A stretch of 36,714 nucleotides of DNA from an uncultured archaeon (GCA_964458565.1 CAYWJO010000035.1:1-36714); one strand, 5' to 3'. Positions 21,209 to 36,714 are shown, numbered from the stretch's first letter. The notes: a model not told the origin generated them from the sequence alone. Program-made: numbers and translations.

Positions 21209-22282
21209 TTGAGAATTCTTGCTGCATTGGACAGATTAGGAGGCAATGCATCAGCTCAGGAAATCAGCGACGAGATAGAAAAATCACACAAATTGAGGAT
21301 TCCAGCAAGGACTATCAGATACAGATTATCCATGATGATGGAGAGAGGGATATTACTTCCATCATTCTTACAGAGTCAAGAGAGGATAATCGGACTTGGT
21401 GAAAAAGTGATTATCGTCCAAGAACATGGGGGAATAAGTGAAGAACTCGAGAAAGTGATTGAGGCAATACCAATCTTTTACTGGTACGTTCCGACACATG
21501 GACACTACGACGGATATCTCATCCATGCAGTCTATGATACAAAGAATCCTAAATTGCACGAGATGATTTTGAAAAGGCTTCAGAAGAAACAACTCATCGA
21601 TAGTTATAGTGAGTTTGAGATTGTGGATTATGAGAGTAAAAGAGTAGATTTCACAAAATATGGACCTAGCGGCAGATGGTCGTGGGATTGGGAAAAATGG
21701 ATAAAGAATATCCCAACCAATATGGAATCTGAAGAGGGAAGTCCCCATAGTATGATAGCGGAATACAAGACCATTGATTGTGATGCAGCCGATATTGAAA
21801 TACTGAAGCAGCTGAAACTAGATCCCGAGGTTTCTATGACAACTCTCTCGCTGTTGTTAAACCAGTCAATCAACCAAGTGCGAGACAAGGTACAACGATT
21901 TCGTGATAATGGCGTAATTAGAGGATCAAAGAGAGCGTATGGTTTTGCGGGAGACCTGCTTTGGTTCTCAACATTCATTGAGATTGAGGAATCAGTCAAT
22001 GGAGTTTTGAAAAACTTCTACGACTTACCCTTCCCCGGGGTTGTACTTATGGAGAACCCAAAGAAATTCTGCTTCCGTTTCGGTCTGGAAACCACAGACC
22101 TGAAGAGATTTTTGGAAGGATTTAGACTCATGCGGGGGAAACTGAAATCTTACTTCTTCCAATTTCACCTTCCGGACAGAATAGAATCGAGCTATCAGGA
22201 CATCTTTTCATTATTTGATAGTACTAGTAATAGATGGAATATGCCATTGGATGAGTATCTCAAAATTATAGATCGATTCTGA
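21209..22282 (+). CDS. Lrp/AsnC-like regulator with two wHTH-containing halves
   Basis: N-terminal HTH (SAQEI...RTIRYRL..M.ERG) and second D..DIEILKQL..D...S...LS...VRDKVQRF...GVI unit; start may lie upstream. Confidence 0.75.
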   Translation: MRILAALDRLGGNASAQEISDEIEKSHKLRIPARTIRYRLSMMMERGILLPSFLQSQERIIGLGEKVIIVQEHGGISEELEKVIEAIPIFYWYVPTHGHYDGYLIHAVYDTKNPKLHEMILKRLQKKQLIDSYSEFEIVDYESKRVDFTKYGPSGRWSWDWEKWIKNIPTNMESEEGSPHSMIAEYKTIDCDAADIEILKQLKLDPEVSMTTLSLLLNQSINQVRDKVQRFRDNGVIRGSKRAYGFAGDLLWFSTFIEIEESVNGVLKNFYDLPFPGVVLMENPKKFCFRFGLETTDLKRFLEGFRLMRGKLKSYFFQFHLPDRIESSYQDIFSLFDSTSNRWNMPLDEYLKIIDRF

Positions 22283-22365
22283 TTAATATCTCAAGGCTAC
22301 AGAATGAATCCACAGATACGCTTTCTTGATTCAGATTCTGTCCAACCATTCTACGAATTTTGGAC

Positions 22366-22821
22366 TCAGAAATCCAAACGAATTGTTTCCCATCGGACCC
22401 TTCCGGCCTCAACTGCTTCTTTGATTTTTCTTTCTGTCTTATTGAGTGTTGCAGATCCGGTCTTGATATCTGCAAGTACAACAGTGATGGGTTCCTCGGA
22501 GTTTCCATCCTTCACAGCGGAGTATCCATCAAATATCAAATAGTCTATGGGAGCTCCAATGAAGCGAGCATCAGAAGGATCAAATGGAAACACATCACTA
22601 AGCAGCGGGACCATGTGTTCAGCTATTTTTCCCTTCAGAACATATCGACTCCTCTGAGCCGCATCTTTTCTCACGGATGATTCTTGTTCAGCCCAACTTG
22701 CCCGAAATTCTGCCTCCACCATTGAGATACGATGTCTAAGTCTTATACGCATCACTAGATATACCAAGACAGCAAATACAATACCTATTCCCAATCCAAG
22801 CAGTGTATCGGCGAATGCCAT
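22366..22821 (-). CDS. Holliday junction resolvase-like endonuclease (Endonuc_Holl type) with N-terminal TM
   Basis: R.DA..RSR..LKGKIAEH..P, ARFIGAPIDYLIFDG, DIKTG.A.L...ER.IKEAV..G.V.W. Confidence 0.85.
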   Translation of the reverse strand: MAFADTLLGLGIGIVFAVLVYLVMRIRLRHRISMVEAEFRASWAEQESSVRKDAAQRSRYVLKGKIAEHMVPLLSDVFPFDPSDARFIGAPIDYLIFDGYSAVKDGNSEEPITVVLADIKTGSATLNKTERKIKEAVEAGRVRWETIRLDF

Positions 22822-22908
22822 GACATAATAATGTGGTATTTAGAGAATATAATGTCCGGTAATCCCCAGGGATTATGTAAAAAAAGAAAAGAGAAGTAAA
22901 GGAATCCT

Positions 22909-23745
22909 TTACTTCACGTAGAAGGGTACACCAAGGTTATCAAACATCACTGGGCAGCTATCTGGCTGCTCTGCGATAACGTATGGACGACCTTCCCAGA
23001 AGGCATCCTGTAGATTATCGTAGGGACCGTTCAGAATAGTTTGGTCTACACAGTAATAGAAGAATAAAGTATTCTCCAATGCGGTGTAATCCCAACCATA
23101 TTGATCAGCCTCAGCAGCAGCGATGTATAAAACACCACTCCTTCGTTCATATGGCTGATCGAACATTCCACCACTGTGACAACTGCCATAGACAGCTGCG
23201 ATGTGGGTTGACTCAAATTGTGCAAATATACTTGCAACGTATGAATCTGTAACAGCTCGAAGATCCCAGGATACAAGACATTCGTCATATCCATCTGATT
23301 CAATATCAGTGTCCCAACTACCATCTTGAGTTCGTGAACCATGACCTGAGTAGAAGAAGACAACTTCTGAGTTTGGACCCTCTTTGGTAATGAGCCAATT
23401 AAGAGCCTCCTCAATATTTGCCTTTGAGGCTTGGTTATCAATAGCAAGAGCATAGTTGTAACCATATGATTCTAGAATAGCCTTCATCTCAAGTGCATCG
23501 TTATGTGGGTTCCAGAGATCTGATGATTTACCATCATAGTCTGATATACCAATGATGACTGCCCACTTATCTTGAGTACTCCATATATTGTAGGTCACTG
23601 GTTCTGGATCTGAAGTCCACCTTCCACCAGGGGTACCGCCAGGCATAATGAGATTTGAGTCATTAGTTGTAGCGATAACAATTGATGGAAAGAGAAGACC
23701 CATTGCAAGTGCTACTAAGAATACTGCTGCAAAAGCTCGTTTCAT
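22909..23745 (-). CDS. Secreted caspase-family (peptidase C14, metacaspase-like) protease
   Basis: Signal peptide; KWAVIIGISDY, NDA, FFYSGHG (catalytic His), DGYDECL, SCHSGG (catalytic Cys). Confidence 0.88.
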   Translation of the reverse strand: MKRAFAAVFLVALAMGLLFPSIVIATTNDSNLIMPGGTPGGRWTSDPEPVTYNIWSTQDKWAVIIGISDYDGKSSDLWNPHNDALEMKAILESYGYNYALAIDNQASKANIEEALNWLITKEGPNSEVVFFYSGHGSRTQDGSWDTDIESDGYDECLVSWDLRAVTDSYVASIFAQFESTHIAAVYGSCHSGGMFDQPYERRSGVLYIAAAEADQYGWDYTALENTLFFYYCVDQTILNGPYDNLQDAFWEGRPYVIAEQPDSCPVMFDNLGVPFYVK

Positions 23746-23885
23746 GGTAGTTCCTTCTCCCGGGTATTAACCACGGACGAATATTTTAGAAAAGAAAAAG
23801 ATACTTATAAATATCTTGCTTTTCTAATTCAAAGCATACTTATAAAGTGTATTTACATTTCTAAAAGAGTTCAACACGAGAATAG

Positions 23886-24362
23886 GTGGAGCATATGAGA
23901 ACTACGGAAATAAGATACCTACTTGTACTCGCACTGTCAATGGTTGTGCTAGTACCGATTGTAAGTGCACAACCGCGAATAGCGTCTGTAGAGTCAATAT
24001 ACATTGCAGATGCGTACTATGCAGATCTCGACGAAGATGGTTATGAAGATGATATCAAAATACTTCTTGAATTCAGCTTTGAGAGTATAGAACCGATACG
24101 TGTAGACCTCAATATCTGGGTAGAGTTGCCATCAGGATTGATGTACGCATTTCGTGTTTCGGTGTATAGAGCACCAGCTCAATCAACGCTAAATATTGAC
24201 TGTATCGACATGGCGACAGAGAGTGGCTGGTACACGGTGACAATGATAGCATCGGTAATGGGAACTGGTGCAGGAAGATTATTCATAACAGACCAGCTTG
24301 AGTTTGACCCTCCCACCGGTACAGGACCAGGAATTATACCAAAGGTTGATGCGTACTTCTGA
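23886..24362 (+). CDS. Hypothetical secreted beta-rich protein
   Basis: Signal peptide ending VSA-Q; DLDEDGYED Ca-binding-like loop; FDPP C-terminal motif. Confidence 0.7.
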   Translation: MEHMRTTEIRYLLVLALSMVVLVPIVSAQPRIASVESIYIADAYYADLDEDGYEDDIKILLEFSFESIEPIRVDLNIWVELPSGLMYAFRVSVYRAPAQSTLNIDCIDMATESGWYTVTMIASVMGTGAGRLFITDQLEFDPPTGTGPGIIPKVDAYF

Positions 24363-25485
24363 ACAAGAGGGTATCATTGAGGTGAATGCTGAAAAATTAG
24401 GTCTGCTCTTTGCATTACAAGAAAGTCCTACAGCATCTGCTGTTGCTCTCGCAAAGAAAATTAAGAAAACTCCACCTACAGCTAGAGCGTGGCTAGATGC
24501 CCTTAGTAAGGAGCAAGTCTATGGAGGAGTTCAAGCATCACTTCGTGTCAGACGTATCGGAATGGAAATGGATGATTTTCTACTAGATGTAGACTCGTAT
24601 GATGCTGTAAAAAAGATTGAACGATTTTGTGACGAGCATCCATACACATCATACCGTGCTCGTATTTTTGGAGGCTCAACTCAAGGTATTGTACTTCAAT
24701 TTAGGCAACCGGATCAAGCAAGAACGCATCTCATTGATGCTCTGAACGTAATGAAGAAACAGGGCATTGTAAAAGGCATCCGGGAACTACCGACTTTACG
24801 AGCTGAGTATGGTTCCACCTATACAAGACCGAGATTAGAAGCCTGGGACCCACAAAGGTTGGTCTGGAACTTCAATTGGGATGAATGGTGGGACAAAGCA
24901 CCCAAAAAACCTGAAACCATCCTTCCAGCTAAAGATGATCGAGGAGTGATTACGCTTGATGAACTTGATGTCAAACTGCTTGAAGAACTCACCAAGAATG
25001 CTCGTAGGAAAAATACAGAGATTATAGATGCAATGGGCCTTGAGAAGGACACAATGGGTGTGCAGCAATTGGTATCTCAGAAAATAAAGCGTCTGGAGGA
25101 AGAGGTTATCGAGTCTTATAGAGTATTCATTAATTGGACATACTTTGATGTTTACAACACCCCATTTGTGATTGCTAAAGCAGATGAGTCCTCTACGGAC
25201 CGCTTGATCTATCATCTTGCAACCAGTGATTTCCCATTTGGGTCAACAATAAGGAAGACCGAAGATGGGTTTGTCTGGTCAGCAAGACTACCCTCAGCCC
25301 ACCTTTCAGAGATGATTGCTTTGGTTTGGCAGATTTCCAAAAAGTATGAAGTTTTGATGTTTGATTACAAACATTCCGAGCTGTACGGACTCTGGGCTGA
25401 TACCTTTGATAAGACAAAAAATGAGTGGCGAACAGATAGAGCGTTTTGTTTTGATGCCCCCATGAAGAGTTTTGAACTGGTATAA
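24349..25485 (+). CDS. Lrp/AsnC-like regulator with two wHTH-containing halves (paralog of 21209..22282)
   Basis: N-terminal HTH, W.F.WDEW linker, LDELDVKLLEELTKNAR second HTH; start probably ATG 24349 or GTG 24382. Confidence 0.75.
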   Translation: MRTSEQEGIIEVNAEKLGLLFALQESPTASAVALAKKIKKTPPTARAWLDALSKEQVYGGVQASLRVRRIGMEMDDFLLDVDSYDAVKKIERFCDEHPYTSYRARIFGGSTQGIVLQFRQPDQARTHLIDALNVMKKQGIVKGIRELPTLRAEYGSTYTRPRLEAWDPQRLVWNFNWDEWWDKAPKKPETILPAKDDRGVITLDELDVKLLEELTKNARRKNTEIIDAMGLEKDTMGVQQLVSQKIKRLEEEVIESYRVFINWTYFDVYNTPFVIAKADESSTDRLIYHLATSDFPFGSTIRKTEDGFVWSARLPSAHLSEMIALVWQISKKYEVLMFDYKHSELYGLWADTFDKTKNEWRTDRAFCFDAPMKSFELV

Positions 25486-25550
25486 ATTTTGTAAAGATTG
25501 ATGCCACAATCTCTATTTGGGATGGGATATTAGCACATTTGGTTGAAAAG

Positions 25551-26594
25551 ATGACGTTGGATTCGTTTGACACGTTAAAGACTCTATGCGATTTAATAGG
25601 ACCTGTTGGAAGAGAATCACAGGTACAAGAAAAAGTGAAGGAGTATCTCGGTGCTTATTGTCCAGATATTTCACAGGATAAAATTGGCAACTTAACAGCA
25701 ACGCTCAAGGGTACAAGTAAAAAATACGCAATTGTTGCTCATGCAGATGAAGTTGGATTTCTTGTAAGTGGGATTAACGAGAATGGATTTATTCAGACGA
25801 AATGGAACACTGAAGGATATATGCCAGATTTACGATTATTACCAGGTCAACGAGTCCAAATCATGACCGATTCAGGATTAGTACCGGGTTGTTTTGCTGT
25901 TAAGACAGCTCACATCGCAGGTGCAGAAGGAAAAAATGTCATTCCTAAGTATGAAGAAATCTTCTTGGATGTAGGAGCAGATTCTGCTGATATGGTCACT
26001 GAGATGGGGATTAATATTGGGGATTCAGTCATTTATGATTCGTCACTTCAAAAGATTGGAAAATATGTTATTGGAAAGTCGATTGATGATCGAATTGGAA
26101 TTACAATGATGGTTCTGCTTGCTGAGAGATTATCCAAGATCTCAGAAGTTGAACGTCCTTCTGTCACGTTCATAAGTACAGTAATGGAGGAGATGGGAGC
26201 TAAAGGAGCTGCAGCCGTAGCACAGGGCTTGGATGTGGATGGAGTGATTATCGCAGAAGTTGGATTGGCAGATGATTACCCAGGAACATCAGGAGAAGCT
26301 GGAGTTTCATTAGGAATAGGTCCAGTTGTCGTTGTGAAAGACAACCAAATACACTATTCACATGAACAGAATCAGAAATTATTTGAAACTGCCAAAAGAA
26401 TGAATATTGAGATTCAACGAGCAGTCTATCATAATTATGCGACTGATGGAGCACAAATAGCGATTCAGGGTCAATTGGTTTCTGTTGTAGCAGTTCCATG
26501 TCGATATACACATAGTAGTTTTGAAATGATTGACATCAAGGACATGGAAAAATCAATTGATCTGATGTATGAGTTTCTCACTCAATCGCAGTGA
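25551..26594 (+). CDS. M42 family (TET-like) aminopeptidase
   Basis: AHADEVG, KSIDDRIG, EEMG.KGA, TDG, PCRYTHS..E. Confidence 0.92.
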   Translation: MTLDSFDTLKTLCDLIGPVGRESQVQEKVKEYLGAYCPDISQDKIGNLTATLKGTSKKYAIVAHADEVGFLVSGINENGFIQTKWNTEGYMPDLRLLPGQRVQIMTDSGLVPGCFAVKTAHIAGAEGKNVIPKYEEIFLDVGADSADMVTEMGINIGDSVIYDSSLQKIGKYVIGKSIDDRIGITMMVLLAERLSKISEVERPSVTFISTVMEEMGAKGAAAVAQGLDVDGVIIAEVGLADDYPGTSGEAGVSLGIGPVVVVKDNQIHYSHEQNQKLFETAKRMNIEIQRAVYHNYATDGAQIAIQGQLVSVVAVPCRYTHSSFEMIDIKDMEKSIDLMYEFLTQSQ

Positions 26595-26958
26595 CCTTAA
26601 CCTTCATACTCTCTCGGGATATGATCTTGACTCTTGCACCTTTAGGAATCTCCCCAATCTCACAACGTGCATCCCAGATCTCTTGGCCTACCTTAATCTT
26701 CCCAGTCTGAGGTGTAACGGTAACAGTTACCTGCCCCTCCATTCCTGCTAATTCGTATAGAGTAGAGAAGTCATCTTGTAGTGCAGGATAAATGATATAC
26801 CATTTCCCTGCAACGAAAATAGCTGATCCAATTAGTCCAACAACGATTGAGATTAAGACATAGTCAGGTGCAAATAAGGCAATCAATGCGATTGCTATCG
26901 GAACCAATACAAGCTCGTCGATTGTTATCAGTACGAATTTAACTCTTGGTGAAACCAT
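26578..26958 (-). CDS. NfeD family membrane protein (C-terminal OB fold)
   Basis: Two TM segments then L.G.EG.V...V.P.TG.IKV..E.W.A......I.KG..V.I. Confidence 0.85.
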   Translation of the reverse strand: MVSPRVKFVLITIDELVLVPIAIALIALFAPDYVLISIVVGLIGSAIFVAGKWYIIYPALQDDFSTLYELAGMEGQVTVTVTPQTGKIKVGQEIWDARCEIGEIPKGARVKIISRESMKVKVTAIE

Positions 26959-27086
26959 TCATTGTTCCTCACGTCTTACTTCACTCTCCTATTGTAATGA
27001 ATACGGAAAAAGGTTTGCAGACCTGAAATTGGTTAAACCAGCACGCTTTATAGAAAGAGAAACAGCGCTGCAAATAGAGGATACTA

Positions 27087-28211
27087 GTGAAAACTGAAAC
27101 AATCCAGATGACAGCAGGTGCTGCATTGTTATCTTCCTTCACCTACATACCCATTCTCGCGAAGGACACGTTAAGTGCGGATGAGTTTCTAATAACTATC
27201 CTCGTAGGTGCTTATGCCACTGCAGCCTTTGTATCAAGCTATATCTTTGGACGAGGAGGAGATATCTATGGAAGAAGAATTATCCTTCGACTAGGATTGT
27301 TACTATCAACAGTGACTTTTGCGTTGCTCATGGTTACATATACTATCGAAGTGCTTTTTGTGGTCAGAATTCTAAACGGGTTCTGTGCTGGAATCTATCC
27401 AGGGGCTCTTGCAGCCTATGCATATGATTCCGAGATGAAAATGGGGAGATTTGCATCATTTGGTGCACTCGGATGGGGATTTGGCACTCTTTTCGCAGGT
27501 TATGCAGCATCAATACAGATTCATCTAGCGTTTGCAGTATCTACACTGTTTCTATCCATCGCATTCATTAGTGCAATGACATTACCAACCATGAAACGTT
27601 CTTTCATCAAGGTGCCTTTATTTCCAATTGATACACTAAAGAGAAACTTCGCTGTATATCTAGCAATTCTTATCAGGCATAGCAGTGCGAATGCATTGTG
27701 GACACTTTGGAGCCCCTTTTTGATTAGTCTAGGAGCTGATACAGTCCAAATAGGAATCATCCAAGCGATGAATTCCATTGCTCAAGTCGTCTTTATGATA
27801 ACGATTATCGATAAATTCGATTACAAGAGGCTTGTACAAGTTGGTCTCATTACAACCTCAATTACATTCTCATATTTCCTCGTCGTGGCTCTATATTTGG
27901 ATTGGGTACAAATGATACCAGCACAGATACTTCTTGGGTTTTCATGGTCATGTCTATATGTGGGTGCTTTGAAGTTCGTAACAGAAAGAAATGTGGAAAC
28001 ATCTACAGCATCGGGTCTTCTCGTGTCTATGTTAAGTATAGCGGGAATCCTCGGTCCGATTATGGCTGCAGTCATTCGCATATTCACAATCAGTTACATT
28101 CCAATTATTTTGAATGTAGTAGTACTCTCTATGGTGGCGCTCTTCATATTCATTTACAATACTAGGAGAGATGAGGAAAGGCCACCTTATATCGAACACC
28201 TGTCTGATTAA
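27087..28211 (+). CDS. MFS transporter
   Basis: Motif A-like FGRGGDIYGRR, RILNG, ~12 TM segments. Confidence 0.9.
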   Translation: MKTETIQMTAGAALLSSFTYIPILAKDTLSADEFLITILVGAYATAAFVSSYIFGRGGDIYGRRIILRLGLLLSTVTFALLMVTYTIEVLFVVRILNGFCAGIYPGALAAYAYDSEMKMGRFASFGALGWGFGTLFAGYAASIQIHLAFAVSTLFLSIAFISAMTLPTMKRSFIKVPLFPIDTLKRNFAVYLAILIRHSSANALWTLWSPFLISLGADTVQIGIIQAMNSIAQVVFMITIIDKFDYKRLVQVGLITTSITFSYFLVVALYLDWVQMIPAQILLGFSWSCLYVGALKFVTERNVETSTASGLLVSMLSIAGILGPIMAAVIRIFTISYIPIILNVVVLSMVALFIFIYNTRRDEERPPYIEHLSD

Positions 28212-28218
28212 CATCCCT

Positions 28219-29403
28219 CTATCGTGTTCTAGCTGATGCAGTTTTCCTTCGCTTCTTAAGTTCGTCAATGTGTCGCCCATAATCAATTTGAGATACATGC
28301 GCAGCAGCGATTGGCAGCATTGCTATGAAGACAATGGCAAAACCCCAGACAACAGCTAGATCAACAAGAAAGGTTGAGTAGCTCCCATCTACAAACATAC
28401 CAATTAATGCACGATAGACATTCGAGATAGGAGAATAGGAGTCAACTACATCAAAACTCAACCCAACCAATTGCAGAGGTGCAATTCCACCTCCAATCAA
28501 CCAGTAGAATATGCCTGTGATAGCAGCAGTTGGAACAAGATACACAGAGTTTCTGAATACAGTACCGAGAAAAACTCCTACTGCTGAACATACAAATGCT
28601 AATCCGATTGAAAGTAGAAAATACGATGCAACGTCACCATTAGGCCAGATACCATATTGAAGTAATGATAGCCCAAGGAGTACAGGTACGGTAATGTAGC
28701 AGAGCGCGACTCCACTCAACATTTTACCTAGATAGATTGCATTCGGAGATTGATTCGATAATCGTATTTCATCGAATGTCTGTTGCTCGAACTCCTGTGT
28801 TACGGTAGATCCAGCAATGTATAGACTACTAAACATAATACTGTAAATTGAGATAGTCCAAGCCATGTATCCAAGCCGAGGATACGTATACTCTCTTGTT
28901 TGTTCGTATGCAAAGTCAACAAGTGCTTTATCACCAAGATATGTCTGATAGTAGATATCGAGCTTCCTAATGACTGGCATTCGGATATTCTTTGTTTGGT
29001 CTTCGTGCATGTTGTTCACTCTGATATGGATATTTGTTGATTGATTACCAGCCATCGCTTCTTCAAACCCATCAGGAATAGTGATGACGAGTAGAATATC
29101 ACCATTATCGAATGCAAGATCTGCTTCATCCGCACTGAGCTGCAAAAGATTGAGCCTTGGTGGTATCTCATCAGGCGCTCCCAGTGTGTCAATCAAAGAA
29201 TTAGTATAGAACCCTGGATTCTGTTCGTCTACTACAAGTGCAACATCGATTCCACTAGAGTATACACCTCCCATGAGTAGATTGAAAGCTATCCAGAACA
29301 TAATGGGTATAAGAATCACCAATAAGAGTTGACGTGGATGGCGTTTCCACACCTTCATCTCCTTCAAGAAAGTCGATTTCATAGTTCTCCAATATTGATT
29401 CAC
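28219..29403 (-). CDS. ABC-2 type exporter permease
   Basis: KE.K...R.P N-terminus, IPDGF extracellular domain, E.EQ.TF, 6 TM. Confidence 0.88.
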   Translation of the reverse strand: MNQYWRTMKSTFLKEMKVWKRHPRQLLLVILIPIMFWIAFNLLMGGVYSSGIDVALVVDEQNPGFYTNSLIDTLGAPDEIPPRLNLLQLSADEADLAFDNGDILLVITIPDGFEEAMAGNQSTNIHIRVNNMHEDQTKNIRMPVIRKLDIYYQTYLGDKALVDFAYEQTREYTYPRLGYMAWTISIYSIMFSSLYIAGSTVTQEFEQQTFDEIRLSNQSPNAIYLGKMLSGVALCYITVPVLLGLSLLQYGIWPNGDVASYFLLSIGLAFVCSAVGVFLGTVFRNSVYLVPTAAITGIFYWLIGGGIAPLQLVGLSFDVVDSYSPISNVYRALIGMFVDGSYSTFLVDLAVVWGFAIVFIAMLPIAAAHVSQIDYGRHIDELKKRRKTASARTR

Positions 29404-30533
29404 GAACCCTCAACCTCCTTGTTTGTAAGAAAAACTGCGATGATGGTTCCAATGAACCAAAATGCAAGAAGAATGACAGAGTTAAACAGAAGACCCTCAA
29501 CCGTATCAAAGAAATAAACACGATTCCACATAGCCATGCCATGAGTTGTTGGGAAGATATAGGTAGCATATCGAAAGGCTCTGGGGAGGAGTGCGACAGG
29601 AGCTATTCCACCACCCGCAAAAAATCCAATCACAGACAATAAGACACCTGCGAGTAATGCTTGTTCTTTGTTTTTAGTTAGTATACCGAATATTTCACCT
29701 ACAGGAACAAGTCCAATGATGGTGAGAAGCAAGATGATGAATAACACAAGCGGATTACCAGCAGGAAATACTCCGAACCAGAGTGTTATGACTGTAAATG
29801 TGATTAGGAGAACAAATAGTGTTCTTGGAATTGCAGCAAGAGTCCGCCCTAGTATGAGAGCAATCCGATTTGAGGGAGAATTAAGTTCATCATAGATCGC
29901 CTTTGTTTCGAACTGACCTGCAGTGAGTAATGCTTGACTTGCTAGTGTGCAGACAACGACTGAGAGAATGATGGCGGCACTTGCTGTATATGCAATGTTT
30001 GATGGAGTGTTCTCTAGATTCAGGGTTTCTTCCAATGCAATCTGCGCGTTTGATTGATCAAAATTAGGAGAGAATGCATCCTGATTGTATAGTAGCACAG
30101 CAACTTCTATACGATGAACGTAATTTTTTACAATGTCGTCATTCAGATTGTTAAGATGTAGAACAACATCGGCCTCAATCCCTGAAGTGAGATTTACTCC
30201 AAACCCATCAGGTATCAGGATATAAGCTATGAGACCTCCACTTGAAAGCAGACTAGAGGCCTCTGTTTGAGTGTAGCGTGTTATACGAAACCAAGTGTAA
30301 TTTGTTGTTGACTTCATCCCCTCTATTATTGCTGCCATTTCATCAGCTTGATAGGATTGATCCTCAACCACCAGCCCACAGACAAAAGATTCTCCGCCAC
30401 CGATTGAAGACCAAAGAATAGAATAGACCAAGAGAAAGACGAAAGGCACAATCAAAGATGGCCCGATAAAGCGAGGGTCTCTTCTTGCCAATCTTAGTTC
30501 CTTTCTGAGGACTGCAATAGTTTCTCTGAGCAT
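29400..30533 (-). CDS. ABC-2 type exporter permease
   Basis: RKELR..RRDP, IPDGF, P...LP...P.TH; 4-nt overlap with the next gene. Confidence 0.88.
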   Translation of the reverse strand: MLRETIAVLRKELRLARRDPRFIGPSLIVPFVFLLVYSILWSSIGGGESFVCGLVVEDQSYQADEMAAIIEGMKSTTNYTWFRITRYTQTEASSLLSSGGLIAYILIPDGFGVNLTSGIEADVVLHLNNLNDDIVKNYVHRIEVAVLLYNQDAFSPNFDQSNAQIALEETLNLENTPSNIAYTASAAIILSVVVCTLASQALLTAGQFETKAIYDELNSPSNRIALILGRTLAAIPRTLFVLLITFTVITLWFGVFPAGNPLVLFIILLLTIIGLVPVGEIFGILTKNKEQALLAGVLLSVIGFFAGGGIAPVALLPRAFRYATYIFPTTHGMAMWNRVYFFDTVEGLLFNSVILLAFWFIGTIIAVFLTNKEVEGS

Positions 30534-30534
30534 C

Positions 30535-31494
30535 TCAATCCCTCAGCTTTGAACCAGTAAGTGCCAGAAATACATCACCCAACGAAGGATCTCTCATAGA
30601 GGCCTGCTGAACATCTAGTCCTGCATCAACAAGTCGTGTAATGACTAAGGGTAAGTCCTTCTTTCCATCCTCCGTCTGTATCCACACTACAGCAGCCTTA
30701 TGGTCGAATCGCTGGAGCTTATCTATTCTGAGTGAAAGCTTGTTCTCAAACCAGCTGTCATCCATTGATTCCGATAGGTTCCCTAAATTGACTTCAATCA
30801 GGAACTTACCAACATGTTTCCGCTTGAGTTCATCAGGAGACCCTTCAGCAACGAGTTTTCCATGGTCAATAACAATCAATCGATCACCAAGAGCTTCCGC
30901 CTCATCCATGTAGTTAGTGCAAAATAGTACAGTTCGGCCCTCTTTCTTGAGTTTTCGAACCTGCTCCCAGATGAGATTCCTACTCTGGACATCAACCCCT
31001 AGAGACATCTCATCTAAAATTAACAGCTCTGAATCATGCATCATCGCTCTTACCAATGTTAGTCGCCTCTTCATCCCCCCGGAATACGTCTTTACCAAGT
31101 CATCCTTTCGGTGAGTGAGACCCGCTAGTTCAAGCATATCTGCAATCCTATCTTTCACAATATCCTTTGGAATACCGTACAGGTCAGCGTGATACTCTAA
31201 GGACTCCTGAGCTGTCAAATCATTATAGAGAGCGGTTTCTTGGGGCATGAAGCCAATCTTCTTTCTAATCTCACCCAGATTATCGGATACTTCAAGACCA
31301 TCCACTTTCACGATTCCGGATGTGGCTCTCAATATACCTGTAATGAGTTTTACAACCGTGGATTTACCAGCCCCATTGGGACCAAGGAGACCTAACACCT
31401 CACCACGCTTTACAGAAAATGATAGATTATCAATAGCCTTTATTTTCCCACCATAGTCATGGATCAAATTTTCAATCTCTACCATTTGGGGCAC
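30535..31494 (-). CDS. ABC exporter ATP-binding subunit (DrrA-like)
   Basis: GPNGAGKST, YSGGMKRR, LLILDE, C-terminal PSL.DVFL.LTG..LRD. Start is GTG 31494 (GGTGA SD) or ATG 31485. Confidence 0.93.
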   Translation of the reverse strand: MPQMVEIENLIHDYGGKIKAIDNLSFSVKRGEVLGLLGPNGAGKSTVVKLITGILRATSGIVKVDGLEVSDNLGEIRKKIGFMPQETALYNDLTAQESLEYHADLYGIPKDIVKDRIADMLELAGLTHRKDDLVKTYSGGMKRRLTLVRAMMHDSELLILDEMSLGVDVQSRNLIWEQVRKLKKEGRTVLFCTNYMDEAEALGDRLIVIDHGKLVAEGSPDELKRKHVGKFLIEVNLGNLSESMDDSWFENKLSLRIDKLQRFDHKAAVVWIQTEDGKKDLPLVITRLVDAGLDVQQASMRDPSLGDVFLALTGSKLRD

Positions 31495-31496
31495 TG

Positions 31497-31646
31497 CAAT
31501 CACCTTTGAGGTAACAAAGGAAACTGAATGATATAGGGTTGGTGTAACTCTCGAGGTTACACTCACTTGCAACTATGTCTTGGAAAGAGAACTGACTAGT
31601 GAATGCCAGAGCAATGTCCAAAATAGTGTAACCTCAAAAGTGACAA
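31497..31646. promoter_or_regulatory. Three copies of a 21-bp pseudo-palindromic operator-like box
   Basis: GTGTAAC-TCTCGAG-GTTACAC (31542-31562), GTGTAAC-CTCAAAA-GTGACAA (31626-31646), TTGTTAC-CTCAAAG-GTGATTG (minus strand, 31497-31517). Confidence 0.7.
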
Positions 31647-31683
31647 AGGATTCATGTATTTAGGTGTCATATGAATATATGAT

Positions 31684-32520
31684 GTGAATATCATGCAGAA
31701 TGATGATATCATAAAGGACCTCATGTGTCTAGGTCTTCACCGTAATGAAGCCAAAGCATACAAATCTCTAGTAACCCTTGGGAGTGCTTCTGCTCGAATC
31801 GTGGCAGAGGAGTCAGGAGTTCCCAGAAGCAAGGTCTATGAAGTCCTTTATTCTCTTGAGAACAAGGGTATGGTGAGAAGGGTAACAGGTACTGAACCAG
31901 CTGAGTTCACACCCATTGATCCAGAACAAGCAATAGACTATCTAGAGGAGATGATGAATCAGTCTGCAAAATCAGCAAAGGCTATTCTTAGTGAGTTAGC
32001 CAAGGATAAAGAATCAGATTTCGAAGAGATGGTCTGGACATTAACGGGTGACGAACAAATCAAGATGACAATAAGATCTGTAATAGCAAATGCTGAACGG
32101 GAGGTTTTCATTGCCACGAGAGACATTGGACTTCTGAAATCCCTGAAACCTTCAATGGCAAAAGCCAAACAAAGAGGAGTTGAAACTCAGCTTGTATCAG
32201 TTGGAAGCAGTCCCGAACTCTTTGAGGAGTTTAGACATTATCTCACATTCATCGATCTTGGAGATATGAGCTCGGAAGACCTGATAGAAACCTTGCAGAA
32301 AGTCATCAATGACCCATCTCTCGGGGCAACCGGATGGAATCCAAATGAGATGTCAATAATTGTTGTTGATAACAAAGAGAGTATTGGTCTATTCAAGAGT
32401 ATATCAGAAACAGTGAAACCATGGGCGCTTTACATCAGAAATCCGCTGATTGTGATATTCCAACGTCAGGTAATCATCTCGTTAATGGCTGCTATTGAGA
32501 GACTCTTTCTTAGCCAATGA
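31684..32520 (+). CDS. TrmB family transcriptional regulator
   Basis: LGL..NEAKAY.SL...G..SA..VA.ESGVPRSKVYEVL.SLE.KG.V; effector domain with I.NAE.EV.I. Confidence 0.93.
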   Translation: MNIMQNDDIIKDLMCLGLHRNEAKAYKSLVTLGSASARIVAEESGVPRSKVYEVLYSLENKGMVRRVTGTEPAEFTPIDPEQAIDYLEEMMNQSAKSAKAILSELAKDKESDFEEMVWTLTGDEQIKMTIRSVIANAEREVFIATRDIGLLKSLKPSMAKAKQRGVETQLVSVGSSPELFEEFRHYLTFIDLGDMSSEDLIETLQKVINDPSLGATGWNPNEMSIIVVDNKESIGLFKSISETVKPWALYIRNPLIVIFQRQVIISLMAAIERLFLSQ

Positions 32521-32631
32521 CTTAGATTTTGGGGTTTTGTAGGTCAACATATCCTACTGTTAATAGATGGTTCTCGGTAAACAGATTGATAACCTGTTTT
32601 TCGGTCTAGAGGGACATTCGGAGGAAACAAC

Positions 32632-33444
32632 ATGAAAGAACCTCTACTAAAAGACATCAGATGTCCTAAGTGCAAGAAGCGGTTGAAACTTGCAGAGATG
32701 TTTCAGCCTTTTGAAGAGATTGTAGAAACAACCCTTTTCTGCGACAAGGGACATACCTGGCCGGTTCAAAATGGGATTCCCTCACTCGTATTTCCACCAA
32801 TCACTGCAGAGGATATGAAGTGGATAAAAGAGTATGATGAGATGGCAGAGAACTATGATGAGACGGTGAAGCAGTATGATGAATGGCTCGGTACAAATCT
32901 GATGAAAGAGAGAGAGGCTTTCACACAGTTCATCACGATTGAGGGACCTGCCAGGATAATTGATGTCAGTGTAGGAACTGCAGCTAATTTTGAGGCACTT
33001 CATAATCATTTCAAGGGTAAACAGATGGGACGATTTGATTTGCATGGATTAGATGTGTCAACGGGAATGCTGAAGGTATCAAAGAGGAAAATGGAGGCGC
33101 TCAGCATTGATGTGTCGCTTATACATGGCAGTGTGTTCAATATTCCATATGAAGAGAACACGTTTGATATTGTCATTCATAGTGGAGGAATCAACACCTT
33201 TTCTGACATACCTAAAGCTCTCAAAGAGATGCTAAGAATTGTAAAACCAAAGGGATTTGTCATAGTCACTGATGAGGGACTATCACCAGAAGTCAGAAAC
33301 AGTCCTCGAGGACGAGAAATACTCAAAGCTAACAGTCTATTCGCAGCAAGACCACCTCTTGAACATGTACCCGATAACATCAAAGATCTGGAAGTCTCGT
33401 ATGTCCTAAATGGGACATTCTATCAAATGGTGTTCAGAAAGTAG
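32632..33444 (+). CDS. Class I SAM-dependent methyltransferase with N-terminal Trm112-like zinc ribbon
   Basis: CPKCK..L....L.C..GH.WP..NGIP; IIDVSVGTA motif I, GLDVS.GML, IPYEENTFD, L.EM.RIVKP.G; GGAGG SD. Confidence 0.9.
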   Translation: MKEPLLKDIRCPKCKKRLKLAEMFQPFEEIVETTLFCDKGHTWPVQNGIPSLVFPPITAEDMKWIKEYDEMAENYDETVKQYDEWLGTNLMKEREAFTQFITIEGPARIIDVSVGTAANFEALHNHFKGKQMGRFDLHGLDVSTGMLKVSKRKMEALSIDVSLIHGSVFNIPYEENTFDIVIHSGGINTFSDIPKALKEMLRIVKPKGFVIVTDEGLSPEVRNSPRGREILKANSLFAARPPLEHVPDNIKDLEVSYVLNGTFYQMVFRK

Positions 33445-33478
33445 AATTTGAGTTTTAAAAGGGATGAAAAAGAAGAGC

Positions 33479-33512
33479 CTGTGCTCACGTTGCCTCTAAC
33501 GCGAGCACATCT
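33479..33512 (-). repeat. 34-bp hairpin repeat, copy A (3' end of micropeptide operon A)
   Basis: 33/34 identical to 34181-34214. Minus-strand RNA UGUGCUCGCGUU-AGAGGC-AACGUGAGCACA (12 bp, one G-U), followed by a U-rich tract. Confidence 0.92.
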
Positions 33513-33601
33513 GTAAGTATAGTATCTTGAAGTTTGCCGCCTTGGTATCTTTCTCTTTGAGACTGTTCCTCAAGCTTCGAAGTCACGTCATTGTCAGTCA
33601 T
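33485..33601 (-). CDS. Micropeptide A4 (38 aa, acidic): MTDNDVTSKLEEQSQRERYQGGKLQDTILTDVLALEAT
   Basis: ATG after AAGGTAG-N6; same length and same DVLALEAT end as B4. Confidence 0.65.
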   Translation of the reverse strand: MTDNDVTSKLEEQSQRERYQGGKLQDTILTDVLALEAT

Positions 33602-33613
33602 GTTGATCTACCT

Positions 33614-33706
33614 TTAACGACGATATGTATATGCATGAGTAATAGCTCTTGTAGAGATCTTTCTACGCGGGGAGTACCTTCCGTTTTCGTTCTTTGCGAT
33701 TGCCAT
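33614..33706 (-). CDS. Micropeptide A3 (30 aa, basic): MAIAKNENGRYSPRRKISTRAITHAYTYRR
   Basis: GGAGGTG SD; clear paralog of B3. Confidence 0.82.
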   Translation of the reverse strand: MAIAKNENGRYSPRRKISTRAITHAYTYRR

Positions 33707-33724
33707 TTGTCTACACCTCCGTGT

Positions 33725-33841
33725 CTACATTTGCTTGTACATGTAGGCATGTACAAGAGCGTCGGTCGACTGGACCTTCGCCATCTTTTTGTTCATCTTC
33801 ACGTTGGATGAGTCTGCGCTTTCTTTAGCCAGAGCCATCAT
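33725..33841 (-). CDS. Micropeptide A2 (37-38 aa): (M)MALAKESADSSNVKMNKKMAKVQSTDALVHAYMYKQM
   Basis: AAGGAGG SD inside the end of A1, TAATG stop/start overlap; shares VKM..KMAKVQ.TDA with B2. Confidence 0.82.
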   Translation of the reverse strand: MMALAKESADSSNVKMNKKMAKVQSTDALVHAYMYKQM

Positions 33842-33948
33842 TATTTGCCTCCTTCATTGACGAATTCCATGTACAGGCTCTCATGGGTCATGAGTTGACG
33901 CCTGTTCAAGTCCTTCTTTCGTGAGGCTTTGTTTTCTGAGTCTGCCAT
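33841..33948 (-). CDS. Micropeptide A1 (35 aa): MADSENKASRKKDLNRRQLMTHESLYMEFVNEGGK
   Basis: GGTG SD; positional equivalent of B1 (MTHESLY vs MTNDALY). Confidence 0.72.
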   Translation of the reverse strand: MADSENKASRKKDLNRRQLMTHESLYMEFVNEGGK

Positions 33949-33971
33949 GCAAACACCGTACCTTATCATGT

Positions 33972-34028
33972 GCGGAATTCAATTCCGCTTGTTAATAATA
34001 TTACATCTTACATCTTAAATATTTATCG
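33972..34028 (-). promoter_or_regulatory. Putative promoter and 5' hairpin of operon A
   Basis: Minus-strand GATAAATATTTAAG (TATA-like, ~34015-34028), TGTAAGATGTAA downstream, perfect IR GCGGAATT-N-AATTCCGC at 33972-33988. Confidence 0.5.
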
Positions 34029-34180
34029 TTATTGTATTACTTTAATATAAAATATAATAAATTACAGGAAAATAGGCTGGTCAACAACAAAACTGCACCA
34101 AAAACGAATCTTACCTGAAAATTAGGCAAGAATTTAGAGAATAATTGTGTTAGGGAATCGAGTTTTCAAGAAAACAGGGA

Positions 34181-34214
34181 CTGTGCTCACGTTGCTTCTA
34201 ACGCGAGCACATCT
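34181..34214 (-). repeat. 34-bp hairpin repeat, copy B (3' end of micropeptide operon B)
   Basis: Single difference from copy A lies in the loop (and is synonymous, GAG/GAA); followed by CCCTGTTTTCTT. Confidence 0.92.
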
Positions 34215-34303
34215 TTTTCAAAGGTATGTCTAGATGAGATTTCACTGGATTCGTCCTCTATAGGTATTAATTCGGATGTTCTAAAGATTTTTTTCTCGCT
34301 CAT
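34187..34303 (-). CDS. Micropeptide B4 (38 aa, acidic): MSEKKIFRTSELIPIEDESSEISSRHTFEKDVLALEAT
   Basis: AGGTAG-N6-ATG as in A4 (alternative ATG at 34309). Confidence 0.65.
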   Translation of the reverse strand: MSEKKIFRTSELIPIEDESSEISSRHTFEKDVLALEAT

Positions 34304-34309
34304 CGTCAT

Positions 34310-34399
34310 CTACCTATACATATACGCATGCATGATTGCCTGTGTTGTAAACTTTCTGCGTGACTCGTATTTCCTGTCAGCTTTCTTTGAGAGTGCCAT
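34310..34399 (-). CDS. Micropeptide B3 (29 aa, basic): MALSKKADRKYESRRKFTTQAIMHAYMYR
   Basis: AGGAGGT SD in the last codons of B2; paralog of A3. Confidence 0.82.
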   Translation of the reverse strand: MALSKKADRKYESRRKFTTQAIMHAYMYR

Positions 34400-34407
34400 T
34401 TTGTTTC

Positions 34408-34515
34408 TTACCTCCTAAATTGATAGGCGTACCCGATAGCATCTGTAGCCTGGACTTTTGCCATCTTCGTGATCATCTTCACATCATTGGTTCGCTTGCC
34501 TTTTGCATGAGCCAT
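34408..34515 (-). CDS. Micropeptide B2 (35 aa, basic): MAHAKGKRTNDVKMITKMAKVQATDAIGYAYQFRR
   Basis: AGGAGG SD in the last codons of B1; paralog of A2. Confidence 0.82.
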   Translation of the reverse strand: MAHAKGKRTNDVKMITKMAKVQATDAIGYAYQFRR

Positions 34516-34521
34516 TTCTTT

Positions 34522-34632
34522 CTAGAGCCTCCTGTAGAGATAGGCATAGTAGAGGGCATCATTTGTCATCTGACGACCTTCTTTGAAGTACTTCCTCACT
34601 GGAGTTACTCTTGCTTGTACGTCTGTATGCAT
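34522..34632 (-). CDS. Micropeptide B1 (36 aa, basic): MHTDVQARVTPVRKYFKEGRQMTNDALYYAYLYRRL
   Basis: AAGGTG SD before ATG 34632 (the track ORF 34522..34704 is over-extended); carries the shared motif. Confidence 0.8.
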   Translation of the reverse strand: MHTDVQARVTPVRKYFKEGRQMTNDALYYAYLYRRL

Positions 34633-34658
34633 TGTTAGAACACCTTTAGGTTCGGAAT

Positions 34659-34738
34659 AATAGTTTGTATTGCAATCGTTTGCTATACAAACTATTCCAT
34701 TCACTATGTTACATTACACAATCGTATATAAGGTTTGC
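34659..34738 (-). promoter_or_regulatory. Putative promoter and 5' hairpin of operon B
   Basis: Minus-strand CAAACCTTATATA (BRE/TATA, TATA 34725-34731), TGTAATGTAA downstream, 17-bp stem with one mismatch at 34659-34696. Confidence 0.6.
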
Positions 34739-34843
34739 CCAACAAACCATTTCGGAAAATTGGTCAAAGTTCCCAATCATAAGCTTTAAAATGTATTTTG
34801 ACCCAAAATTATATGTAAATATATTATAGCAAGGGGTCGAAAT

Positions 34844-35653
34844 ATGGGTAAATCGATGATCTACGAAGATAATACGGATACATTCACGCCAATTAAACCC
34901 AATGAAGAGAAAAAAGAATTGGGACGTATTGTCACCATCACAAAAGAAGGAAAAGCCAAACCCAATGAAGTTGAGTTTGTTTTTGAACAAGAAAGAATCA
35001 ATGTGCTTGATGACCCCGTGAGGTTACAGATTCTGCAAATATTGAGAGATGGAATCGAAGACACTCAGACTACTGAGGAGTTCAAAGAGGAAACTGGTGA
35101 GAGGATAATTAGACAGAGAGTTGTAAGAAGGAACATCATGTCAGTTCTAGAGATTGTTGAAATGTCTGAGAAACTCGCAAAGAAAAAAGGAGATGATGAA
35201 CTCAAGCTCTCCAAGAACCAAATATACCATCATCTACCCATTCTTGAGGATCCTGGAAAATTCGTTGTTAAATATGCCACCGTTCAGAGAGGGAAGAGAT
35301 TCACAGACTATTATAGAAGGACAGCAGGGGGTTTTGTTCTCACTAGCGAACTGAGTGAACTGGATCATCAGACAATTCAGAAGAAATCAGCAGATTGGAT
35401 TGATCGAACCTCCAAGGTTTTTGACATCGATCTCACTGAAGAGCAGAAGAAGGAATTAGTTGAGTTACAGGTTGAAGCTATGAGATTTGAGTTTGAAAAT
35501 CGTAGTAGAATTGCAAGACTCATTCGTGGGGATGTAACGGACGACCACGTTCTAAGTATCTATGAGTGGCTAATCCACACATTTACCATTGGTAATCCGG
35601 AGTATATTAGAATCCAGAAAAAAATCAGATCGATTCTCTTTCCGAATGAATAA
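34844..35653 (+). CDS. ArsR-like winged-helix regulator, divergent from the micropeptide operons
   Basis: VLDDPVRLQILQIL, MSV.EI, SKNQIYHHL..L, YYRRTA. Confidence 0.8.
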   Translation: MGKSMIYEDNTDTFTPIKPNEEKKELGRIVTITKEGKAKPNEVEFVFEQERINVLDDPVRLQILQILRDGIEDTQTTEEFKEETGERIIRQRVVRRNIMSVLEIVEMSEKLAKKKGDDELKLSKNQIYHHLPILEDPGKFVVKYATVQRGKRFTDYYRRTAGGFVLTSELSELDHQTIQKKSADWIDRTSKVFDIDLTEEQKKELVELQVEAMRFEFENRSRIARLIRGDVTDDHVLSIYEWLIHTFTIGNPEYIRIQKKIRSILFPNE

Positions 35654-35890
35654 TTAGCAACTAGCACAGACATTTGTTTGAGTGTCTGCTACACCCTTAA
35701 TGGACCGAATTCTATCAACAACCAATGCACTGAGATCTTCATGTGTAGTACACACCACCTTGATGAGAATATCATATGCTCCGAAGATGACATATGCCTC
35801 AACGGTTTCTTCAATCTTCTCAATCTCAGCTAAAACATCGCGACTGTTTTCATTCGCAACATTGATCATAATGAATGCAGTTATTGGCAT
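35654..35890 (-). CDS. Stand-alone Lrp/AsnC ligand-binding (RAM) domain protein
   Basis: AFIMINV...V.EAY.IFGAYDILIKV......L...V..IR.I.GV.DT.T. Confidence 0.9.
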   Translation of the reverse strand: MPITAFIMINVANENSRDVLAEIEKIEETVEAYVIFGAYDILIKVVCTTHEDLSALVVDRIRSIKGVADTQTNVCASC

Positions 35891-35966
35891 TGAGAGTGGC
35901 CTCTAGATAGTAACCTAAGGGGAATTAACCTGTTAAACCTATTCCCTACCAATAAATAATTCGAAT

Positions 35967-36341
35967 TCAAAGAAACCCAATAAGCTTGATTGCAGCACGT
36001 GCAACATCGATTTTAGCTAGTTCCGGTACAGATTCGTTAATAGCTCTAGCGATAACCCATGATATGTTTTCAATTCGGCAAATAATGATATGGCCCTTAT
36101 TCTTTTCCGCTGCTCCAATGTAGAAGTCTTCCGATGATGCAACTCGGTGATAGGTAACATTGTCAACAGATAGAGTAGATGCAGCAGTCTTGGGAGCAGC
36201 GAGAATGTCCTTCACAGCCTTCACAAGATTCCAATTATTTGTCTGCCACAAAATCTCTTCCCCCTTACATACACCAAAGTGCTGTATTTTCGGATTATTA
36301 GCATAGAGCAATTGCCATTCTGTAGCTATGACATCTTCCAT
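35967..36341 (-). CDS. Asgard-type profilin-like protein
   Basis: ILWQTNNWNL, LSVDNVTY, KNKGHIIIC, terminal helix A..KL; size and motifs resemble Asgard profilins. Confidence 0.75.
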   Translation of the reverse strand: MEDVIATEWQLLYANNPKIQHFGVCKGEEILWQTNNWNLVKAVKDILAAPKTAASTLSVDNVTYHRVASSEDFYIGAAEKNKGHIIICRIENISWVIARAINESVPELAKIDVARAAIKLIGFL

Positions 36342-36416
36342 CAGAAATCACCATCAATCCATAAGGGACTCAGGGTAGTGATATCCTCACCACCCTAATA
36401 CAAACTCCATAGGGGG

Positions 36417-36714
36417 TTAAATTCGTCCCTTTAGGGACCTAGCCGCCCTATCAACATCCACATAGATCAAGTCGGGTTGTGCATCAGCTGCAGCCCATGC
36501 CACAACGAATTTTACAGCGTCAATTCTTGCTAGTAGAAGGATACCGTTTCCTTGAACATTTCTAGCAACTAGACTATCTGGCGTGGTCCGAATTGTGGAG
36601 TACTTAATCTGATTTTGAGTGACAGAAGATGCGCCTTGGGAAATAGCTGACACTAGTGATTGTGCTTCTGCTGTCAAGTCCCAGTTATTACTCTGCCAAA
36701 GTACCTGTCCTTCA
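36417..36714 (-). CDS. Asgard-type profilin-like protein (5' end outside the window)
   Basis: Frame is open to the window edge: EGQVLWQSNNWDL...QIKYSTIRTTPDSLVARNVQGNGILLLA...DRAARSLKGRI. Confidence 0.8.
   Translation of the reverse strand, partial: EGQVLWQSNNWDLTAEAQSLVSAISQGASSVTQNQIKYSTIRTTPDSLVARNVQGNGILLLARIDAVKFVVAWAAADAQPDLIYVDVDRAARSLKGRI

Follow-up and report, generated by a model that had tools for sequence, protein, structure and literature searches.

We describe a cluster of very small genes in a 36,714-nucleotide stretch of DNA from an uncultured archaeon (GCA_964458565.1 CAYWJO010000035.1:1-36714; the whole stretch is termed the window, and positions are counted from its first letter unless another contig is named). 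On the minus strand, between 33485 and 34632, lie eight ATG-started open reading frames (ORFs) of 29-38 codons each, arranged in two blocks (B, 34632-34187; A, 33948-33485) that align gene for gene. A preliminary description, made from the sequence of the window, had proposed two paralogous operons with Shine-Dalgarno (SD)-like sites and gaps of at most 18 nucleotides (nt), and all eight ORFs were recovered here at the same positions. Numbered in the direction of reading, the genes are:

34522-34632, minus strand: B1, 36 amino acids (aa), basic family member, extra first gene
34408-34515, minus strand: B2, 35 aa, long-type basic peptide X
34310-34399, minus strand: B3, 29 aa, short-type basic peptide Y
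34187-34303, minus strand: B4, 38 aa, peptide Z, with a conserved C-terminal motif
33841-33948, minus strand: A1, 35 aa, degenerate first gene
33725-33841, minus strand: A2, 38 aa, long-type basic peptide X, its start overlapping the A1 stop (TAATG)
33614-33706, minus strand: A3, 30 aa, short-type basic peptide Y
33485-33601, minus strand: A4, 38 aa, peptide Z

All eight starts are preceded, 7-17 nt upstream, by a GGAGG or AGGT(G/A) core, its SD complementarity being judged against the canonical archaeal anti-SD since the 3' end of 16S rRNA was not located in the assembly by simple patterns. For genes 2-4 of both blocks this core lies inside the last codons of the preceding gene, and intergenic gaps range from -1 nt (the A1/A2 overlap) up to 18 nt. 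The earlier caveat that terminal AGG-AGG codons double as the SD site of the next gene is borne out by long-peptide copies that have no downstream small ORF: these end in Q-R rather than R-R, so that the penultimate arginine codon is partly an SD constraint. For B1 we favor the ATG at 34632, with its AAGGTG SD site, over a GTG-extended form of 60 aa that would begin close to where the transcript is predicted to start. For B4, an ATG lying 6 nt further upstream, at 34309, is a possible alternative start and would give 40 aa; the proposal that the fourth peptide is exactly 38 aa in both blocks therefore holds for A4 but perhaps not for B4.

Peptide alignments uphold both the position-wise paralogy of the blocks and a C-terminal motif common to B1, B2, B3, A2 and A3. 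A1 is degenerate, as had been noted, yet its sequence T-H-E-S-L-Y also occurs in the first ORF of a locus from a related genome (L010). X and Y share a Tyr-rich C-terminus, S-T-[D/E]-A-I-x-Y-A-Y-x-Y-R-R, and the alignment of X reveals that its N-terminus, M-A-L-A-K-N, is conserved as well; we take X, Y and the X-like first peptides to be one family of basic peptides. Peptide Z has a variable hydrophilic body and ends in [E/D]-V-L-x-[L/W]-E-A-T. All eight peptides are hydrophilic (grand average of hydropathy -0.4 to -1.3), with isoelectric points (pI) of 9.5-11.4 for the X/Y type, 4.7 for B4 and 4.3 for A4. Peptide Z had accordingly been called acidic, which is correct in the window but not elsewhere: its net charge ranges from -5 to +3 across 20 loci, so that the idea of an acidic partner is not general. 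AlphaFold2, given 43 aligned sequences, predicts B2 as a single helix over residues 2-34 (predicted local distance difference test, pLDDT, 75.8). Column-averaged hydrophobic moments at 100 degrees are about 0.1, corresponding to weak amphipathicity, and they lend no support to an amphipathic coiled coil for X that had been suggested by heptad spacing seen by eye in B2. An HbYX proteasome-activator tail was likewise rejected for Y, which fits it in five of 16 aligned peptides, and X ends in Y-R-R. A complex of A2, A3 and A4, predicted with alignments, scored 0.05, which is evidence in neither direction.

We are highly confident that this micropeptide operon is real, coding and under selection. 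Among close relatives, the pooled ratio of nonsynonymous to synonymous change (pN/pS) is 0.24 for X/Y and 0.39 for Z; among operons from metagenomes it is 0.54 for X, 0.30 for Y and 0.38 for Z (0.41 in the variable body of Z), values that are descriptive because the pairs are non-independent. That conserved residues are encoded by different codons, from which selection on the peptides had been proposed, is well illustrated by A3 and its paralogue on contig C7 of the same genome, which are identical at 22 of 28 residues, 14 of them via different codons, and between which synonymous sites are saturated. In all 20 loci aligned, the frame of Z is open; the two alternative frames are open in 5/20 and 0/20, and shuffled sequences in about 25% of cases, a comparison carrying some ascertainment bias in that Z was found by its ORF. 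About 150 matches to a profile of the core peptides were listed in relatives; none has an internal stop, and most stop-to-stop frames are about 30-45 codons. The stops and ratios near 1 expected of spurious ORFs were thus not encountered, pN/pS lying between 0.24 and 0.54 throughout, and together with conservation, open frames and the lack of any family match this sustains the earlier proposal of a polycistronic small-protein system of unrecognized family.

The distribution of the family is sharply bounded. The host is consistent with the Thorarchaeota, an Asgard lineage, and a weakly profilin-like ORF in the window would fit an Asgard genome (partial ORF at 36417-36713; Profilin match at E=1.2e-3, under cutoff). 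A profile built from seven core peptides matched 32 of 36 genomes of the same family and none of 24 outside it in a first sample; in a phylum-wide sample, the wider Asgard search that the preliminary description had recommended, it matched 72 of 85 genomes of the family and none of 315 genomes representing 32 other families. Three of the profile-negative genomes still carry divergent versions adjoining the regulator gene described below, and for this reason we regard the micropeptide family as close to universal in the lineage. Most genomes that have it carry several copies. Interrogation of 1.84 billion representative proteins with the profile returned 36 matches, 35 of 29-60 aa that clearly belong to the micropeptide family and one of 88 aa, and the ten clusters looked up among them are unnamed or labeled "hypothetical protein"; B2 and the GTG-extended form of B1 are present in public protein sets. 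In metagenomes, a strict DNA pattern retrieved 22 contigs, of which 21 bear X-Y operons, 19 of these with Z, and a single strict DNA pattern gave no matches in viral contigs.

None of the eight peptides matched Pfam-A or NCBIfam at E-values up to 10, or PADLOC or PHROGs at E-values up to 1, and the ESM Atlas gave no usable match. Searches of the literature yielded no description of the micropeptide family; two surveys of deep-sea antimicrobial peptides mention Asgard peptides in generic terms only. The novelty originally suggested thus stands against all four family collections, and we judge both the peptide family and the operon encoding it to be new, claiming newness for the protein family and not for a mechanism.

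Copies elsewhere in the same genome differ in content. One on C7 (100497-100835) has X, Y, Z and the hairpin considered below; one on C45 (25430-25638) has X and Y; and those at C57:317-418 and C26:26243-26350 have X only. A related genome (G009) harbors five X-Y-Z cassettes of about 410 bp (L017, L046-L049) that are 88-98% identical to one another and lie in unrelated flanks. In other genomes, several family matches lie at the end of a contig, a sign that assemblies may break at these repeats.

The arrangement in the window is a variant form, duplicated and with four genes per block. Relatives hold one operon between the same two neighbors, a divergent regulator gene (11 loci) and a convergent methyltransferase gene (8 loci), and from this we conclude that blocks A and B are a lineage-specific tandem duplication of a single ancestral operon. 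By their positions, block B would have retained the ancestral promoter and block A the ancestral downstream neighbor. The order in the window is a TrmB-family regulator gene, the methyltransferase gene, block A, block B and the divergent winged-helix gene. This duplication was absent from the preliminary description, as were the regulator with its operator and the transporter link to which we turn below.

Both blocks end in a hairpin that is also part of the coding sequence of Z:

34182-34211, minus strand: terminator-like hairpin of block B, holding the B4 stop, with a T-rich run to about 34167
34109-34131, minus strand: second terminator-like hairpin with a T-run, between the blocks
33480-33509, minus strand: terminator-like hairpin of block A, 12 pairs, holding the A4 stop, with a T-run to about 33465

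The hairpin consists of the last nine Z codons, the stop codon and the next 5-7 nt, followed by the T-run; the codons for D-V-L-A-L-E-A-T supply its 5' arm and loop. The stretch of block B that contains it (34157-34222, 66 nt) folds at -20.7 kcal/mol (z=-3.6). Across 20 aligned loci, the proportion of paired cells is 76%, compared with 26-50% when the partner is slid, and double-sided changes occupy 14 cells, a number equalled by one of 500 shuffles. Changes in the 3' arm fall mostly at third codon positions (alignment columns 27 and 30), and these columns include some variation without matched compensation, 24 of 80 cells being unpaired. A few loci have a different hairpin in the same place. 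In the Z motif codons pS is lowered, at 0.25 versus 0.48. A G+C-rich stem and T-run with compensatory changes, the hallmarks of an intrinsic-terminator-like element, are therefore present at the 3' ends of both blocks. We read the tail of Z as being under dual constraint, a real peptide end on which an RNA terminator or stabilizer appears to be superimposed; the D-V-L-A-L-E-A-T ending noted earlier is thus genuine as a motif, but its conservation at the peptide level is confounded by the covarying RNA.

Upstream of block B are the elements of a candidate control region:

34844-35653, plus strand: ArsR/PH1932-like winged-helix regulator gene, 269 aa, divergent from block B
34732-34748: operator-like palindrome O1, GGTTTG-N5-CAAACC, abutting the TATA box
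34724-34731, minus strand: TATA box of the putative block B promoter, assigned by its sequence and by its conserved position beside O1
34659-34696: palindrome O2, in the predicted 5' leader of block B, with two more GTTTG/CAAAC-type half-site pairs and an inverted self-match

The regulator falls just below the Pfam cutoff for HTH_20 (25.7 bits; cutoff 27), has a weak match to HTH_5, and matches PDB 1ULY (PH1932) at E=2e-4 and the helix-turn-helix part of Csa3 at E=4e-7; a single-sequence AlphaFold2 model was poor (pLDDT 44.7). It is the divergent neighbor of the operon in 14 loci, namely the 11 related loci and the three genomes without a profile match. The unit of O1 palindrome plus TATA box is kept in 11 of 12 regulator-linked loci and occurs once only in the genome from which the window derives. 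With a strict pattern combining operator and TATA box, the 61 family genomes searched gave 20 sites and the reversed control none. By reading of the listing, eight of these precede X/Y/Z operons, four precede X followed by a gene of the major facilitator superfamily (MFS), three stand directly before an MFS gene of the same family and five were left unassigned; a scripted count placed an X/Y-type ORF after 12 of the 20. As a genome-wide motif, GTTTG-N5-CAAAC had to be rejected, there being seven sites only, near chance, and the signal lies in the clustering of sites at the peptide loci and in the extended operator-plus-TATA form. As RNA, O2 folds at -18.1 kcal/mol (z=-5.8), and second sites equivalent to it are found downstream of the TATA box in L030, L044, L056, L089 and L091.

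We consider control of the operon by this regulator and operator to be somewhat more probable than not, with the ArsR/PH1932-like protein as the probable repressor and the palindrome as its presumptive binding site. A comparable layout is found at smtB-smtA of Synechococcus, where an ArsR/SmtB-type repressor gene is divergent from a small target gene. As in smtB-smtA, and in relation to PH1932 (PDB 1ULY), the gene of a winged-helix protein here diverges from that of a small protein, and an operator-like palindrome overlaps the promoter; unlike smtB-smtA, the target peptides lack metal-binding residues, and the thorarchaeal regulator is extended at both its N- and C-termini and stays under the Pfam cutoffs. 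A paralogue of the regulator (39% identity) is encoded on another contig (G000:C32, 31707-32432), with a similar palindrome of N6 spacing upstream; beside it, two tRNA-3'-end-like repeats about 1.1 kb apart (at about 30450 and 31560) could mark an integration site.

Other promoter arrangements accompany other copies. Block A is preceded by two features:

33990-34100, minus strand: AT-rich presumed promoter region of block A (GC 0.30-0.34), with a TAAGATG direct repeat
33972-33988: palindrome in the block A leader

A 45-nt segment of the former (33990-34034) is 87% identical to G000:C13:42877-42921 (L002, about 1500-1545), upstream of an Lrp/AsnC-type gene, and the TAAGATG repeat found in both upstream regions may be a shared control site. 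A second promoter type, comprising a GTCACA-N3-TGTGAC palindrome, two more GTGAC half-sites and a TATA box, occurs at three sites in the same genome (C7:100421, C45:25354 and C57:241; L042, L039 and L040), each of which ends 32 nt before an X gene.

Co-occurrence with MFS genes, together with the shared operator, is the sole functional association that we found. On C45, X and Y are followed, 6 nt past the Y stop, by a DHA3-type (Mef/EntS-like) MFS gene, and on C57 the order is X, an MFS gene, a hypothetical gene and a second MFS gene, both MFS genes matching MFS_1. These arrangements recur in other genera (L044, L055, L056 and L061), and C45, C57 and these four loci are the only places where a candidate regulated gene lies directly downstream of X/Y. 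In such operons the MFS gene takes the place of Z. In other genera, the operator of the peptide operon also precedes one lineage-specific family of MFS transporters. Repeats of the GTGGTCAC type, akin to the GTGAC promoter motif and present in several genera, form clusters between micropeptide and MFS genes in L055 (600-680), L061 (830-940) and L044 (4100-4180).

The overall explanation that we favor, and to which we give about an even chance of being right, is that the locus is a tandem duplicate of a regulator-linked ancestral operon with transport-linked, trans-acting peptides. Each block would constitute one short transcription unit for translationally coupled soluble microproteins, in the order extra X-like peptide, long basic X, short basic paralogue Y and peptide Z. 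The palindrome sits at the expected position of the element recognized by transcription factor B (TFB), where a bound protein would block initiation, and the hairpin and U-run holding the Z stop probably end and stabilize the mRNA. The peptides may then act in trans as small binding proteins in a transport- or stress-linked regulon. Most likely, though at low confidence, they are microproteins that are soluble, act in trans and belong to a transport-linked regulon under the control of a repressor; taken by itself, a transporter-linked trans-acting role, argued by analogy, is tentative and less probable than its negation. The analogy is with SgrT-PtsG, MntS-MntP, MgtS-MgtA/PitA and AcrZ-AcrB, in which small proteins modulate transporters (PMC10710835): peptides of less than 50 aa that are made with, or controlled like, the transporter upon which they act in trans. 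The thorarchaeal X/Y peptides similarly have an operator, and in several genomes an operon, in common with MFS transporters. They differ in having no sequence relation to these proteins and in being soluble, basic, multi-copy and encoded in sets of three or four, and the link to transport is one of gene context only.

Several observations weigh against this explanation. No MFS gene belongs to either block of the window, where the closest MFS and ABC-2 genes (27087-31572) form units of their own. In relatives, the majority of copies stand alone as cassettes in unrelated surroundings, from which it follows that the peptides can do without a linked transporter and that the link might be no more than co-regulation. 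The peptides lack a membrane segment, and their helical hydrophobic moment is weak, which offers no clue to contact with a transporter. Block A lacks the operator in this window, and binding of the regulator to the palindrome, like transcription, translation and the predicted transcript ends, is deduced from DNA sequence. Finally, the genomes compared all come from one related family, so that conserved synteny overstates the independent support.

Other roles for the peptides can be envisaged, and the same evidence bears on them unequally. X and Y might be Arg/Tyr-rich binders of nucleic acid (chromatin or RNA chaperones, or hairpin binders, perhaps of their own terminator), with Z as a modulator, a reading that we consider rather unlikely. 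The high pI and strong hydrophilicity, the prediction of X as one long helix, and the Tyr/Arg-rich C-terminus, of a kind suited to base stacking and phosphate contacts, would all fit, and multi-copy self-contained cassettes with their own promoter and terminator suggest an abundant product. The arginine-rich-motif peptides that bind RNA (lambda N with boxB, HIV Tat and Rev) are short basic helices in which an aromatic residue is important for the hairpin, and X/Y are likewise short, basic, predicted to be helical and encoded with a conserved hairpin, with a conserved loop, in the same transcript. X/Y, however, have no sequence relation to those peptides, nor homology to other nucleic-acid-binding families; the thorarchaeal hairpin resembles an ordinary terminator, and the E-A-T codons account for the conservation of its loop, in which variation is confined to third positions. 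The operator held in common with an MFS transporter and the X-Y-MFS operons would also be left unexplained. In a further reading, which we think improbable, X, Y and Z would serve an Asgard-specific control circuit, binding the ArsR-like regulator as anti- or co-repressors, or their own terminator hairpin, and thereby setting the expression of the lineage-specific MFS regulon; if true, such a peptide-regulator or peptide-hairpin circuit would represent peptide-based feedback or signaling with no described archaeal counterpart. Quite doubtful, in turn, is the proposal that X/Y are leaderless exported signals or antimicrobials, which the MFS protein exports or protects against and the regulator serves in a peptide-sensing circuit. 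Leaderless bacteriocin operons of Firmicutes (aureocin A70, garvicin KS, enterocin L50) do contain two to four tightly spaced tandem paralogues of about 30-45 codons, and the thorarchaeal genes resemble them as tandem paralogues of about 30 aa without a leader; some copies are operonic with MFS efflux genes, and regulator and peptide genes are divergent. Those bacteriocins, however, are hydrophobic or amphipathic, membrane-active and accompanied by an ATP-binding cassette (ABC) exporter and immunity genes, whereas the thorarchaeal peptides are archaeal, strongly hydrophilic and weakly amphipathic. No linked ABC exporter, protease or immunity gene was seen: dedicated exporter and immunity genes were found neither in the operon nor beside the stand-alone cassettes, some copies do precede an MFS gene, and the ABC-2 exporter encoded at 28219-31572 forms a unit of its own. 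Selection is purifying rather than diversifying, with many near-identical copies per genome, and we know of no MFS pump that exports 30-aa peptides.

The remaining alternatives are harder to reconcile with the layout of the operon. Were the ORFs cis-acting leader peptides, in which C-terminal ribosome stalling controls downstream translation or termination as in the attenuators of bacterial efflux and resistance genes (the ermC and mef(E)/mel leaders), one could account for the C-terminal conservation, for the placement of X/Y, in some copies, directly before Mef/EntS-like DHA3 MFS genes, and for the Z stop inside a terminator-like hairpin. In contrast to those leaders, most copies, both window blocks included, have no regulated gene downstream and precede only a terminator and then unrelated or convergent genes; three or four coupled consecutive ORFs are atypical of attenuators, and the M-A-L-A-K-N N-terminus is conserved as well, so that we hold this explanation to be very doubtful. 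The preliminary description had also suggested ribosomally synthesized and post-translationally modified peptides (RiPPs) with a Tyr-rich core, which would here be modified by the neighboring methyltransferase or by enzymes encoded elsewhere. Apart from the Tyr-rich C-terminus and that convergent neighbor in eight loci, little speaks for this suggestion, and it now seems highly unlikely: among genes at 21209-36713 and beside the other copies, Pfam revealed no radical-SAM (S-adenosylmethionine), YcaO, lanthipeptide, P450, protease or dedicated exporter gene; the methyltransferase is of a generic class I, UbiE type, convergent, and absent from many stand-alone cassettes; and conservation spans the whole peptide with no leader-plus-core pattern. 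Least credible of all is that the ORFs are untranslated, being part of a structured non-coding RNA or the complement of real plus-strand genes. Strong hairpins and long plus-strand ORFs of 92-94 codons (33527-33811 and 34360-34638) might suggest as much, but Rfam has no match in 32500-35500, codon-level signals favor the minus-strand frames, and the antisense open frame is not conserved, varying from 34 to 101 codons across loci, on which ground we regard the plus-strand ORFs as shadows.

Beyond block A, the window continues with:

32632-33444, plus strand: SAM methyltransferase, class I, UbiE-type, with an N-terminal Trm112-like zinc ribbon (Pfam, NCBIfam), convergent to block A
31684-32520: TrmB-family regulator gene, preceding the methyltransferase gene in window order

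A search of genome contigs with the methyltransferase gave distant proteobacterial matches only. Its identification as the arsenite methyltransferase ArsM was rejected, the models scoring 39-43 bits against cutoffs of 240-575 and its cysteines being confined to the zinc ribbon; we regard it as a conserved neighbor only. Efflux genes abound at 27087-31572, where an MFS_1 gene is accompanied by two ABC-2 permease genes and the gene of a DrrA-like ABC ATPase, and a 278-aa ORF at 22909-23745 bears a caspase domain (Peptidase_C14, E=5e-21).

Next to nothing is known of regulation or small proteins in the Thorarchaeota, uncultured archaea related to the ancestor of eukaryotes. The micropeptide family described here occurs in nearly every genome of its family that was searched, in several copies and under purifying selection, and is mostly missed by gene callers. 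Its operon ends in a hairpin that also encodes the conserved tail of the last peptide. With a regulator gene, an operator set against a TATA box, a coupled operon of three or four genes and one MFS family under the same operator, the locus presents a concrete and testable circuit, and it offers defined DNA, RNA and peptide reagents with which the function of these proteins may be found.

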